A stretch of DNA of 64,000 bases from Parachlamydiales bacterium (GTDB taxonomy: Bacteria; Chlamydiota; Chlamydiia; Chlamydiales; JAFEGQ01). Under the pieces are notes generated by a model that saw nothing but the letters and a program-made list of their open reading frames with translations, searched no databases and was not told the origin of the DNA. The stretch is taken from assembly GCA_050250135.1 (NCBI GenBank), contig JBFWPF010000001.1, positions 30,305-94,304 on the forward strand, read 5' to 3'. The stretch's first letter is position 1, and every line of letters begins with the position of its first letter. Shown piece by piece: positions 1,964 to 6,000 of the stretch. Position numbers and translations under genes: made by a program.

Positions 1964-3058
1964 CTATCTTCCCTCTTCCTCTCGAATGCGCCGCAATTGT
2001 TTGGCTACATGGCCGTCAAGGTTGCGTCGTGTGACATCATCGGCAAACAGGGCCACCTCATCTTGGTCCAGCTCCCCTCGTAGCAGTTTGAGGGCGGTGT
2101 CGTAGGGCTCTCGGGTACTGTGATCGTCTAAATTCGGGTCGACAAATCGATATACTAATTCCTCTCTCCTTAATCCCATCATTTCGGGGTAGGGGGCGGC
2201 CGGCCAATTAATTCTGCGATCCCCATATTTCTTTTTGTTGCAGATGACTCCTACCTCTATATCATCTCGCGTAAAAGGAGTATGCGCCAGATAGGGGGCC
2301 AACTCAGGCGATCCGTTGATTGCCTGAAGTAGGCCGTCTGTGACTTCAACCAGTAGGGCCCGCCCCTCAGGAACAGAAATCGTATGGTATAGGTAAAAAC
2401 GGACTGAAAGGTGATCATGGCCCATCCCGATGCCCATCACTTCAAGCCCTTTTTGCTTGTCCATCTTCCGGCCAAAGTCATAGAGGACTTTAGACGCCGC
2501 CTTCTTGAATGGCTCGTCTGCCTTAAGGATGGCATCACTTGCACCCGACTTCGCCAAAATGGCCTTAGCCTCAGCGTAGGTTTCTTCTGTATGGCGTGAT
2601 TTGTAAAATTCCTCAGAACTTTTATAGGTGTAGGAAAGCTCATCCCTAAAGTTCCCTGCAGCCGACGGATTGGGATAAAGAGATTTATTACCAACATAAT
2701 CGCCTAGAAATAGATCTATTTGAACATGCTCGAGTGAGAATGGGTAGTCGGAACAATTTTCCCTTAAATAGGGATCTTGATTTAGTTTTTCTACATACAA
2801 ATCCATAGCGGTTACAAGCAGATAGCGAGCTTCTTCCTGGGTCAAAGCCCCTCTTACGACAAGCGCGAGGTAGAGGAGGCCACCACCTGCCGCTTCGACT
2901 TGATAGCGCTTCTCCAGCTCCGACGCTACTTGGTCAGAAATTTTATCGATATACTTGTAACAGGAAGAATCCATCGTATAGGTCGAGCTCCATGCGGCAT
3001 GCACGAGGGATGTAGCTAACAGCAACGATACCCAAATTCGTATAGTCCATCCGGTCAT
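1964..3058 (-). CDS. exported hypothetical protein with two tandem homologous halves; candidate partner or immunity protein of the Rhs C-terminal domain
   Basis: Signal peptide MTGWTIRIWVSLLLATSLVHA. Its start overlaps the Rhs stop by 4 nt. An internal repeat is visible by eye. It is lower in GC than its surroundings. Confidence 0.6.
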   Translation of the reverse strand: MTGWTIRIWVSLLLATSLVHAAWSSTYTMDSSCYKYIDKISDQVASELEKRYQVEAAGGGLLYLALVVRGALTQEEARYLLVTAMDLYVEKLNQDPYLRENCSDYPFSLEHVQIDLFLGDYVGNKSLYPNPSAAGNFRDELSYTYKSSEEFYKSRHTEETYAEAKAILAKSGASDAILKADEPFKKAASKVLYDFGRKMDKQKGLEVMGIGMGHDHLSVRFYLYHTISVPEGRALLVEVTDGLLQAINGSPELAPYLAHTPFTRDDIEVGVICNKKKYGDRRINWPAAPYPEMMGLRREELVYRFVDPNLDDHSTREPYDTALKLLRGELDQDEVALFADDVTRRNLDGHVAKQLRRIREEEGR

Positions 3059-6000
3059 TCGACGGGTCCCATCCAGCCGTGTCTTTTCATAAAGCCCTGG
3101 TACGATCGCTCTATCGGATCCTCTAGCGTCGGACTCTGAAGCTCATGATCCGGGAGTCCTCCACCAGGAACCGGGTCAAGCCAGGTAGTTGTCTCCCTAC
3201 ACATTGCCTTTCCCCTCCTATCAAGATGGGGAACTATATCACGCTTACTCGCATAGTGTACAGCATGGGAATTGAGTTCGCGTCGAATATAGGAAGAGGG
3301 GCTCAAGCAGACCGGATAGATCCGCTCCCGCTCCTCAGTTGTCATCAACATCAGGGCATTCCGCTGGACCGTAGTCCCTGCACTATGGGAAAAGTCGAGC
3401 ATCCCGCCTATCTTCTTGCTCTGATTCCAGTCGGCGCGCAGACTGTTTACAGTGACCTCGACTGCTTTAGTTGCCACACCAAAGAACATTTCCACCATTA
3501 CTCTGCGAACATCAGAGACTCCTCCCTGAGTCGGATTGTACTCACAGATCACATTGTGACCGCCGCAGATCTTGGAAAGATAGCGCATATTGTCCATAGC
3601 TTGGCCCCGAGTTGTGTTGATCCCGTTTTGGTAGTGGATACTGGTCCCGTTAGGGAGCTTGGGCAGCCCGAGGTCCAGGACCGTGGATTCTCCCTGAAGA
3701 ACAAAATAGGGAATTACGGCCTTGTCGAAGTTGGCGGCAGTGGCATTGTAGGGGTTTGGCCGATCCCTCCACTTCTGCGCGGTGGCCAATAGAGATACAG
3801 CGGCCTGCTTATGATCCTTGTCTTCACTCAGGAGCCCTAAGAGATCGATGAGGGTCAGAGGGCAGTTGTGGCAATAGGCATAGAGGTTAGGGCCATCTTC
3901 ATAACCCCGCGGATCGGGGGTAAGCCATCGGCCAAATCGGGGAAGATAGTAGCGCCGCCCAAAGAAGATGTGGCCCGTTTGGTCGTCAACTCGCTTTCCG
4001 AGAAAACGATAAGGGTTTTGAAAGGCGCTGGGGGCATGGTTTCCAAATGCGTCGTAATGATAGACCTCCCCCACCCCGTCTTGAGAGCGAATGAGGGCCA
4101 CAGAGCCCCGAAAATCAGGGGTAGGGAGGAAGGGCTCTCCCCTTAGCTCCAGAAGAGCGATTCCTAAAAGTGAACCCTTTAGGCCAGGGCCAGGAGCTCG
4201 CAAGGCGGACACCTCCCCCTCTTCATTCAGGGCGCCTATCTCCTGCTGGTCTATGTATAGGAAATGGTCGAGGCTTGTGGGCTGCCATCCCCCTGGACAG
4301 CGAGTATAGCGGGTTTCTGTAAGGCGGCGATGGAAGGGGTCGTAGGCATATTCGACTCGCCAATTCTCCTGCTCGATGGAGGTAAGCCGACCCCGGCTGT
4401 CATAGGTGTGGTACTGGCTGCCTATCTTTGTGGTTAAGCCATCAGGATCGTAGGAAAAAGAGATCTCGCCTGCCTGCGTGAGCTGATTGAAGGGATCGTA
4501 AAGGTAGGAATTGTCGTCTTTTGTGAGGCGATTATTGAGGGAGTCATAGGTATAGGAGGTTTGCCCTGACTCGTGGGTGAGCTGATAGAGGGGATCGTAA
4601 GCATAGGCCGCAGTGGTGGTGGACAGGGGAGCTTGGGTAGCCACTAGGGTGACGTTTCCGACAGGGTCGTAGGTGATCTGTTGGGCAAATAACTCGTTTT
4701 CTATGGCTGTCACCCGCCCGTTGTGGTCGTAGGTGAGAGAGGTCGATTCGAGGGGCGAGTGGATCCGTGCCAACCTCCCGTCGAGGGAATACTGATAGTC
4801 GATGGCCACGCCTTGCCGCTCAAAGCGGGTAATATGCGGGCCTTGATAGAGGTAAGAGAGAGTAGAGTCGTCCGGGAGGCTCACCTCGGTTATCTCTCCT
4901 TGTTCGCCATGAGAATAGGAGAGCGTCCAGCCAGTCTCTAGGGTTTCGGAGACAAGGTCACCACGTGTGTTATAGATCCGGGTAGTGACTCCCCTTTCAG
5001 ATTCTACAGAAAGGAGGCGGTCGGCAAGGTCATAGCGGAAGGTGTCGGCAAAGTCGGCCCCTGAAAGGGTGGATAGGCGGCTTAAGGCATCGTAGGTGCG
5101 GTTAATGGTGGTTCCGCTAGGCTTGATGGTGCTGGTCAGCCGACCCGCCTCATCGTAGGAATAGCGGGTGGTACGCTGCTGGCCATCCCTACCCTCTGTT
5201 AGCCTCACTGGCCGGCCTCGAGGATCGTAGCCCCACCGAAGACGATAGGGAGATTGCCCGTCCCGAGTGGGGAGATGGACCTCCGCAATCTTACGCATGC
5301 CGAGATCGTAGTGGTAGTGTGATGATGCGAGGTCCGCCCCTGAGGCTGAGATTTTCTTGATCGAGGTTATGGCTCCTCTGGCGTTGAAAGAGGAGAGGGT
5401 GCAGAGCCCGAGAGGATCAATCCTCCTCTCCTCCCGGGGAAAAAGGCCATAGGAAATCGTCGTCTCATGCCCTTCAGGGTTGACGATGGAGAGAGGGCCA
5501 TGGATTCCGAATCGGGTTTGGGTGCTGCCCCTTTCTGTGGCTTCCGATACGACGTGGCCATCAAAGTCGTATTCCCAGCGCTTCCAGGAAAGAAGGCGGT
5601 CAGCGTAGATCTCCTCCCTTACGAGGCGGTCGAGTAGGTCGTAATGGTAGCGAAACGTGGTCCCCGAGGTCTCATCGCATAGCTGCTTCTCAATTGGCCG
5701 CTTAAGAGCATCATAGGTGTAGCGAACCCGCCTTCCCTCGAAATTCTCCTCGACCAGCTGGCCACAGGCATTGTAGGTGTAAGTGGTTACGGTGCCGTCG
5801 GGATGGCACGTTTCGGCCAGACAATCCCCTTCGTAGGCATGAGTTGTCTCCTTGAGGCAGCGCCCCTCGCTGTCCAAGAGTCGGACGATGATGGGACGAC
5901 CTCGATAGTCCCGAATGTAATGGGTGGTTAAGCCTGAAAGATCGGTATGGGACTCCACCTCTCCCTTGAGCGAGTAACGGAAGGTCTCGTGCCCTCCATC

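Follow-up and report, generated by a model that had tools for sequence, protein, structure and literature searches.

A probable Sec-exported Rhs toxin-immunity module with a DUF687-related alpha/beta-hydrolase domain in a Parachlamydiales bacterium

Introduction

Rhs polymorphic toxins combine a signal peptide, a shell of YD repeats, a core that ends in a PxxxxDxxGL-type motif, a variable C-terminal toxin, and an overlapping partner gene, and they occur with tandem immunity arrays and with orphan toxin and immunity fragments in relatives (PMC3482391). Rhs toxins with a Sec signal (the 'T2SS' class) were catalogued by Zhang et al. (2012), and Rhs toxins with alpha/beta-hydrolase tails are known: Tox-ABhydrolase-1 to -3, of which Tox-ABhydrolase-2 was reported, without an immunity gene, in a Parachlamydia-type endosymbiont (PMC3482391). 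In the Parachlamydiales, Rhs-like proteins form large orthogroups (PMC6171736, PMC2811131). Here we analyze an Rhs gene and its downstream partner gene in a 64,000-nucleotide (nt) stretch of DNA from a Parachlamydiales bacterium (contig JBFWPF010000001.1, positions 30,305 to 94,304; hereafter 'the window', with position 1 its first nucleotide). An earlier note on this DNA had read the C-terminal domain of the Rhs protein as a Ser-Asp-His serine hydrolase of Tle-like type, located on a compositional break and consistent with a swapped-in toxin cassette.

Tle lipases that act in the periplasm are paired with Tli immunity proteins, which are themselves periplasmic or lipoproteins (PMC13133936, PMC9860674). 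DUF687 is a Chlamydia-specific domain of predicted inclusion-membrane proteins (CT326, CPn0066, CPn0069, CPn0381, and CPn0882; PMC3048545); in a 2024 classification it forms a cluster of alpha/beta-hydrolases that is not part of the Pfam clan, with members reported to be without catalytic residues and to have a C-terminal membrane bundle (PMC11878206).

The module in the window shares with Rhs polymorphic toxins each of the features listed above and differs from them in three respects: neither its toxin nor its partner belongs to a named Pfam toxin or immunity family, its host is chlamydial, and no contact-dependent delivery apparatus is linked to it. It differs from Tox-ABhydrolase-2 and -3, which have partners of cytoplasmic type (SUKH, Imm66, and Imm69), in having a partner with a signal peptide, a distinction drawn from their descriptions only.

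Results

Architecture of the Rhs protein

The Rhs gene comprises the following features:

3055..8262, minus strand: Rhs/YD-repeat protein open reading frame (ORF), 1735 amino acids (aa) from TTG at 8262
8182..8250, minus strand: predicted Sec-type signal peptide of the Rhs protein (MRFLLSCVLGILLFAAAPPIPSS; end approximate), read from the sequence
3832..4056, minus strand: Rhs-associated core, aa 1403-1477 (TIGR03696, Rhs_assc_core, E=3.3e-21)
3694..3831, minus strand: linker from Rhs core to hydrolase domain, aa 1478-1523; helical in a low-confidence model, unconserved in the family
3076..3693, minus strand: DUF687-related alpha/beta-hydrolase domain, the predicted toxin, aa 1524-1729, defined by the family, the model (predicted local distance difference test, pLDDT, >90 over most of it), structure matches, and PF05095
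3622..3624, minus strand: G1547, in an N-G-I loop after strand beta3, predicted oxyanion-hole position
3382..3384, minus strand: S1627, predicted nucleophile, in S-H-S-A-G here and C-H-S-x-G in the family
3238..3240, minus strand: D1675, predicted catalytic acid, in R-D-x-V-P
3145..3147, minus strand: H1706, predicted catalytic base, in D-H-x-[FIL]-x-S-P-T

The Rhs protein contains 13 RHS-repeat matches (PF05593, RHS_repeat, E=3.3e-63) and matches the YD-repeat model (TIGR01643, YD_repeat, E=7.6e-43). The ATG at 8250, which gives a protein of 1731 aa, is a more likely start than the TTG at 8262. The signal peptide was judged by reading the sequence rather than with a predictor program; signal peptides also open complete Rhs relatives that bear the same tail domain.

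The Rhs core ends in the motif PLTLIDLLGL, in which L replaces the P that usually follows the D of the PxxxxDPxGL-type autoproteolysis motif. The DLLGL segment corresponds to aa 1473-1477 (window 3832-3846), and both motif aspartates, D1450 and D1473, are present. The role of the aspartyl motif of Rhs cores is known from published structures of RhsA and TcC. By analogy with these proteins, PLTLIDLLGL is a predicted aspartyl autoproteolysis site, at which the protein would be cut after L1477.

The segment that the earlier note had assigned to the C-terminal domain, 3058-3831, is exactly the 258-aa tail that follows DLLGL, and all motifs that it had quoted are present: IHYQNGINTT at aa 1542-1551, YNPTQG at aa 1575-1580, FSHSAG at aa 1624-1629 (3376-3393), KRDIV at aa 1673-1677, and PDHEL at aa 1704-1708. 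The linker coincides with a region of low model confidence (pLDDT 60-66 over tail residues 1-50), and family matches start at approximately tail residue 45-65.

The C-terminal domain defines a family with a conserved Ser-Asp-His triad

An exhaustive HMMER search of 1.84 billion cluster representatives yielded 811 clusters that match the tail at E<=1e-3, including 271 at E<=1e-10, with a best non-self match of 38% identity. As in the window protein, the hydrolase domain of the relatives is at the extreme C-terminus (median of 5 residues behind it), and many of them are Rhs proteins: 69 of the top 150 matches are at least 1000 aa long, 60 of these 69 contain at least eight YD motifs, most open with signal peptides, and RHS_repeat was confirmed by Pfam on the six large family members tested. 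A word-indexed protein search with the tail gave no match, a Protein Data Bank (PDB) sequence search with the single tail gave chance-level matches only, NCBIfam gave no match to the tail, and no PADLOC defence model matched the tail or the partner gene.

Aligning 137 family domains shows that G1547, S1627, and H1706 are each conserved in 100% of sequences and D1675 in 99%. Because the Ser and His are invariant and the Asp is nearly so, the Ser, Asp, and His candidates are not a chance occurrence. The nucleophile elbow has the form C-H-S-x-G in 76% of the aligned family and the form S-H-S-A-G in the window copy. The divergence of the window copy is not out of the ordinary, with 5 mismatches at columns conserved in at least 80% of sequences, as compared with a family median of 3. 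A disulfide between two family-conserved cysteines (tail positions 148 and 187) was considered and dropped, the two positions showing no co-variation.

The predicted fold places the triad at canonical alpha/beta-hydrolase positions

An AlphaFold2 model of the tail, built from a 12-sequence alignment, has a pLDDT of 86.2 and a predicted template-modelling score (pTM) of 0.82. In the model, in tail numbering, strand 64-68 leads into the N-G-I loop; S150 is at the junction of strand 144-149 with helix 151-161, forming a nucleophile elbow; D198 lies in a loop after strand 191-195; and H229 lies in a loop after strand 215-218, before the last helix. As read from the secondary-structure order of the model, rather than from three-dimensional geometry, the predicted triad is at the canonical positions for an alpha/beta-hydrolase: nucleophile after beta5, acid after beta7, and His after beta8. 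The glycine of the N-G-I loop, G1547, would contribute to the oxyanion hole.

A Foldseek search of the PDB with the model yielded 61 matches at E<=1e-3, and all 50 matches listed are alpha/beta-hydrolases: cutinases/PETases, carboxylesterases, acyl-protein thioesterases 1 and 2, dienelactone hydrolase, and a thioesterase. Among the matches listed, template-modelling scores (TM-scores) are 0.39-0.58 and identities are 9-16%. The closest solved folds are small, lid-less esterases, that is, cutinases/PETases of bacteria and fungi, carboxylesterases (1AUO and 3CN7), and acyl-protein thioesterases (1FJ2 and 5SYN), with Foldseek E-values of 2.5e-5 to 6e-4 among the matches listed. These enzymes share strand order and triad placement with the window domain model; they differ from it in sequence, and none is a toxin domain or has an immunity partner. 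A search of PDB sequences with the family profile gave a best match that is marginal (E=0.074), to the carboxyl esterase MGS0156, with the nucleophile elbow in the aligned part.

The results strongly support the proposal in the earlier note that FSHSAG, KRDIV, and PDHEL mark a Ser-Asp-His alpha/beta-hydrolase, of esterase/lipase type, as the C-terminal toxin of the Rhs protein: family conservation, predicted fold and topology, and structure search concur.

The toxin domain is related to the hydrolase part of DUF687

The sole Pfam match of the window tail at E<=1 is DUF687 (PF05095), with a score of 22.3-23.0 bits and E=3e-5 to 5e-5. Of 26 relatives, 23 match PF05095 at E<=0.05, with a best E of 4.7e-18; one relative (P0004) scores 49.8 bits. 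The homology spans roughly profile positions 35-207 of 537, which correspond to the alpha/beta-hydrolase part; the match of the window tail covers positions 37-180 only. Other alpha/beta-hydrolase matches in the 26 relatives are marginal and singular (Abhydrolase_8, Hydrolase_4, Cutinase, DUF900, and DUF3089). We conclude, from profile matches, that the toxin domain and the hydrolase part of DUF687, a chlamydia-specific family, are homologous.

The window domain and DUF687 are alike in this shared alpha/beta-hydrolase part and in being confined, as far as seen, to Chlamydiota, and they differ in the remainder of the protein and in the active site. Published DUF687 proteins are approximately 560-620 aa long and have a C-terminal transmembrane bundle, whereas the window domain ends its protein: no C-terminal transmembrane bundle is present, the Rhs protein ending 6 residues past the domain end at aa 1729. 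DUF687 members of Chlamydia are reported to lack catalytic residues (PMC11878206), whereas the window family keeps the full triad.

The term 'Tle-like' in the earlier note holds as a functional analogy and fails as a family assignment, DUF687 being the sole sequence family matched. The window module resembles Tle1-Tle4 and Tli in having a Ser-Asp-His alpha/beta-hydrolase, an elbow of GxSxG type, and an immunity-type partner with a signal peptide, a resemblance of function only. It differs from Tle1-Tle4 in that the window domain has no match to DUF2235 (the Tle1 family), DUF3274 (the Tle3 family), or Lipase_3, has an elbow of the form [C/S]-H-S-x-G, is much smaller (approximately 205 aa) and lid-less, and is carried on a Sec-signal Rhs protein without PAAR or VgrG.

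The toxin gene is followed by a gene of an unnamed immunity-type family

The gene directly downstream of the Rhs gene starts at an ATG that overlaps the Rhs stop codon TGA as ATGA (gaATGAcc) and comprises the following features:

1964..3058, minus strand: partner gene, 364 aa, predicted immunity protein
2984..3058, minus strand: predicted signal peptide of the partner (MTGWTIRIWVSLLLATSLVHAAWSS; end approximate), read from the sequence
2546..3055, minus strand: immunity-family domain copy 1, aa 2-171, by family-profile match and by phmmer matches to downstream ORFs of up to 6.3e-18
2078..2518, minus strand: immunity-family domain copy 2, aa 181-327, fused in frame to copy 1

A search with a degenerate DNA pattern that encodes two toxin motifs retrieved 76 metagenomic loci, and 74 of the 77 ORFs matched were true family members. 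In these loci the toxin ORF is followed by an ORF with a median length of 180 aa, mostly at the same -4 overlap. At 60 of 70 unique loci the ORF directly downstream of the toxin matches the halves of the window partner at E<1e-3 (best 6e-18), and for 58 of these 60 partner-family members a simple rule based on hydrophobicity indicates a signal-peptide-like N-terminus. The ten unmatched downstream ORFs include four that are cut at contig ends and two XerC-like genes beside standalone paralogs of the hydrolase. The pairing of toxin and partner is thus near-obligate, and because the partner domain follows the toxin in 60 of 70 independent loci, the partner represents an unnamed immunity-type family. 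The family has no Pfam model and no recognisable domain, and a single-sequence structure model of the partner was unusable (pLDDT 45).

The two halves of the window partner are homologous to each other (E=7e-8), and relatives carry single or tandem copies. We therefore conclude, from these sequence matches, that the partner gene encodes two tandem copies, fused to each other, of a conserved immunity-type domain of approximately 180 aa. Two to four separate tandem copies of the partner are present in 20 other loci, and extra orphan toxin fragments with their own partner genes are present in three (L069, L078, and L085). This arrangement of tandem partners and orphan fragments is the recombination-cassette organisation typical of Rhs loci. 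A further locus, from an uncultured-bacterium metagenome-assembled genome (MAG; CAZOAJ010000011.1, L006:2648-3676, minus strand), contains a frameshifted remnant of the toxin 3' end followed by an ATGA-overlapping partner gene; the small signal-peptide or lipoprotein ORFs further downstream in this locus gave no partner-family match in a profile search. On this evidence the partner gene is most likely the cognate immunity gene.

As an observation on individual loci, L011:6010-7752, L069:5803-8209, and L078 carry two to four tandem partner genes, some of them with orphan toxin fragments, behind the main Rhs gene. As an observation on annotation, the NCBI record of the Rhs protein from the same MAG (MGE3953595.1) uses a later start and is shortened to 1540 aa, and the NCBI entry for the partner (AB7F31_00155, hypothetical protein) has 336 aa. 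The public calls for both genes (1540 vs. 1731-1735 aa and 336 vs. 364 aa) drop the predicted signal peptides, and the starts of both genes deserve correction.

The module as a whole is compositionally foreign

The guanine-plus-cytosine (GC) content is 58.5% for the window, 55.0% for the Rhs core, 53.2% for the tail, and 48.9% for the downstream gene (1964..3058). GC at third codon positions (GC3) is 61.6 for the Rhs core, 59.3 for the tail, and 50.0 for the downstream gene, as compared with 73.9 +/- 4.7 (minimum 63.9) for 20 other ORFs of the window. Within the Rhs core, 6% of 777-nt segments are as GC-low as the tail, and a likelihood change-point scan of the Rhs ORF finds no break at 3831, its optimum being at 7543 with a log-likelihood gain of a mere 1.5. 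When the scan is extended to 1964-8262, the optimum is at 3050, at the border between the Rhs gene and the downstream gene, and the downstream gene is within the lowest 0.2% of segments of equal size. We conclude that the whole Rhs/partner module is compositionally foreign to the genome, the downstream gene most of all, and that the tail is not set off from the core. Because the metagenomic relative loci have a median GC content of 38.7%, it is reasonable to suppose that the module was acquired from lower-GC relatives.

These results separate the counts in the earlier note from the conclusion drawn from them. The four hand counts, of 29, 27, 37, and 40 GC in lines of 60 nt, are all exact on recount. 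Two low-GC lines prove little, because lines of 60 nt with 29 GC or fewer make up 9% of the whole window. The proposed break at the toxin domain is contradicted by the change-point scan, which finds none at the core/toxin junction; the real drop in composition is in the downstream partner gene, which the earlier note had overlooked. The GC argument for a swapped-in cassette fails, since there is no discontinuity at that junction; the idea of a cassette retains support on other grounds, namely that one toxin-plus-partner module is found at the end of many different Rhs proteins and also as orphan fragments.

Organism, neighbourhood, and standalone paralogs

The named members of the family are Rhs proteins of Candidatus Protochlamydia naegleriophila (CUI16927.1) and Criblamydia sequanensis (CDR34243.1), together with a Parachlamydiales MAG; the taxonomy of the family is based on these three members and on chlamydial marker genes in the neighbourhoods. 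Fusions of topoisomerase I to SWIB and porins of Legionella_OMP type are chlamydial traits. The window encodes a DNA topoisomerase I with a C-terminal SWIB/MDM2 domain (53980-56526, plus strand), which fits Parachlamydiales, and a tandem porin array (35139-41767, plus strand) of five paralogous genes (355-425 aa) of the Legionella major outer-membrane family (PF05150, E 1e-22 to 1e-32). A 650-aa ORF at 50780-52732, minus strand, has no Pfam match at E<=1e-5.

A PAS/HisKA/HATPase sensor kinase gene (8322-10079, minus strand) precedes the Rhs gene in the same orientation and ends approximately 60-70 nt before the Rhs start; the kinase may possibly be co-transcribed with the Rhs toxin or regulate it. 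Convergent to the Rhs/partner module is a type II secretion operon (93-1881, plus strand, continuing beyond the window start in L001:8669-16047). Inside the window the operon consists of pseudopilin-like ORFs with prepilin-type N-termini, and beyond the window start, in a Logan contig, it encodes GspF, GspE, and the GspD secretin. A tblastn search with the GspD, GspE, and GspF of this contig found nothing in the other fetched loci (L003-L085). A functional link between the Rhs module and the type II secretion operon was rejected on this ground: the Gsp proteins are not found near other family loci, and so the adjacency is probably coincidental.

Standalone paralogs of the hydrolase, 227-256 aa long and with a signal peptide and an intact triad, are present at four loci: L005:107-877, L007:2408-3118, L008:5701-6405, and L009:3581-4264. 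A XerC-like integrase gene is behind all four, and a Lactamase_B (RNase Z-like) gene is ahead of three of the four. These paralogs probably represent a housekeeping, non-toxin use of the fold in chlamydiae. The window holds no standalone copy of the hydrolase family.

Discussion

We consider it probable that the Rhs gene and its partner constitute a Sec-exported polymorphic toxin-immunity module, in which an esterase or lipase warhead works outside the cytoplasm and an immunity protein in the periplasm neutralises it. According to this proposal, the Rhs protein would be exported by the Sec pathway through its N-terminal signal peptide, its YD-repeat shell would enclose the C-terminal domain as in RhsA and TcC, and the aspartyl protease motif of the core would cut after L1477, freeing a warhead of approximately 26 kDa. 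The warhead would be a small, lid-less alpha/beta-hydrolase that uses the S1627/D1675/H1706 triad and the oxyanion loop at G1547; after crossing of the outer membrane, it would most likely hydrolyse ester bonds of envelope lipids, as a phospholipase or esterase, attacking a target cell from its periplasmic side or from outside. The partner, translationally coupled to the toxin, would most likely reside in the periplasm of the producer and block the hydrolase there as Tli proteins block Tle lipases. That the toxin acts outside the cytoplasm is suggested by the signal peptide of the partner.

Several observations weigh against this proposal. The family is known from sequence and from a model. 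The window protein scores just below the gathering threshold of DUF687 (25 bits), no Tle or lipase Pfam family matches the window tail or the 26 relatives, and the structure matches are general esterases and thioesterases, not specifically phospholipases, with TM-scores that are modest. As to delivery, a Pfam scan finds no PAAR or VgrG domain on the Rhs protein, and no outer-membrane delivery device is linked to the Rhs gene, the neighbours of which are the sensor kinase gene and the type II secretion operon. At the four loci with standalone paralogs no partner gene adjoins the hydrolase and the neighbourhood is a conserved, housekeeping one; because these paralogs bear the triad and have no partner, the fold is not necessarily self-toxic, and not every family member need be a toxin. 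Finally, chlamydiae live obligately inside host cells, so that it is not obvious which bacteria would be the target.

The last point raises the question of whether the hydrolase is directed at the host instead, attacking membranes of an amoeba or protist, or deacylating lipidated host proteins, with a partner that only shields the envelope of the producer during periplasmic passage. All named relatives are, like the window organism itself, obligate intracellular chlamydiae, acyl-protein thioesterases 1 and 2 (depalmitoylases/lysophospholipases) are among the structural neighbours, and Zhang et al. call chlamydial toxin-like proteins probable host effectors (PMC3482391). The same work, however, recognises host-directed versions by their lack of an immunity gene, whereas here the partner is near-obligate and amplified to tandem arrays with orphan modules, which is a signature of inter-bacterial conflict; moreover, an Rhs shell would already protect the producer during export. 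We therefore regard a host effector as unlikely. About equally unlikely, in our estimate, is a serine hydrolase with a non-lipid envelope substrate, such as a peptidoglycan or polysaccharide O-acetyl esterase, a lipoprotein or lipopolysaccharide (LPS) deacylase, or a peptidase, a reading that would leave the logic of the module unchanged. It draws on the nearest structures, which are cutinases/PETases and general carboxylesterases and not lidded lipases, on marginal Pfam matches of single members to Cutinase, to Abhydrolase_8, and to the S33 aminopeptidase family, and on the fact that a partner with a signal peptide says only that the target lies outside the cytoplasm. Nothing specific favours any of these substrates, however. 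Among known polymorphic toxins that act in the periplasm, the alpha/beta-hydrolases so far characterised are lipases. DUF687 relatives have a membrane bundle like that of putative lipases (PMC11878206).

Two further alternatives concern the partner and the activity of the domain. Co-occurrence alone cannot tell an immunity protein from a helper, and the partner family has no recognisable domain and could not be modelled, so that the downstream protein might be a chaperone, an activator, or an export factor; nevertheless, two to four tandem copies, copies beside degraded orphan toxin fragments, and a copy kept next to a frameshifted toxin remnant are features expected of immunity genes and not of chaperones, and we consider a helper improbable. 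DUF687 proteins of pathogenic Chlamydia have been proposed to be catalytically dead scaffolds, and DUF687 members are reported to be without catalytic residues (PMC11878206), but a dead scaffold is highly improbable for a domain in which Ser, Asp, His, and oxyanion Gly are kept, at canonical positions, in the window protein and in essentially all 137 relatives.

We return to the proposal of an exported toxin-immunity module. Compared with the described systems, with Tox-ABhydrolase-2 and -3 compared by description only, what is new is a toxin family with homology to DUF687, an unnamed partner family, and the concentration of both in Chlamydiota; the toxin family may nevertheless prove to be the same as Tox-ABhydrolase-2. 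The intact Ser-Asp-His form offers a testable function for DUF687, long a chlamydia-only domain of unknown function, and the signal-peptide partner of approximately 180 aa is a new immunity-type family, present in dozens of independent loci and often in arrays. A broader hypothesis, which we advance tentatively and think more doubtful than not, is that the module belongs to a phylum-wide Rhs toxin-immunity system, independent of type VI secretion, for conflict among bacteria that share a host cell; its warhead would be an intact DUF687 domain, and the DUF687 proteins of Chlamydia would be domesticated, inactivated descendants of an interbacterial esterase or lipase toxin. Obligate intracellular bacteria keep and diversify this conflict-like module, which makes competition between endosymbionts within one host cell approachable experimentally.

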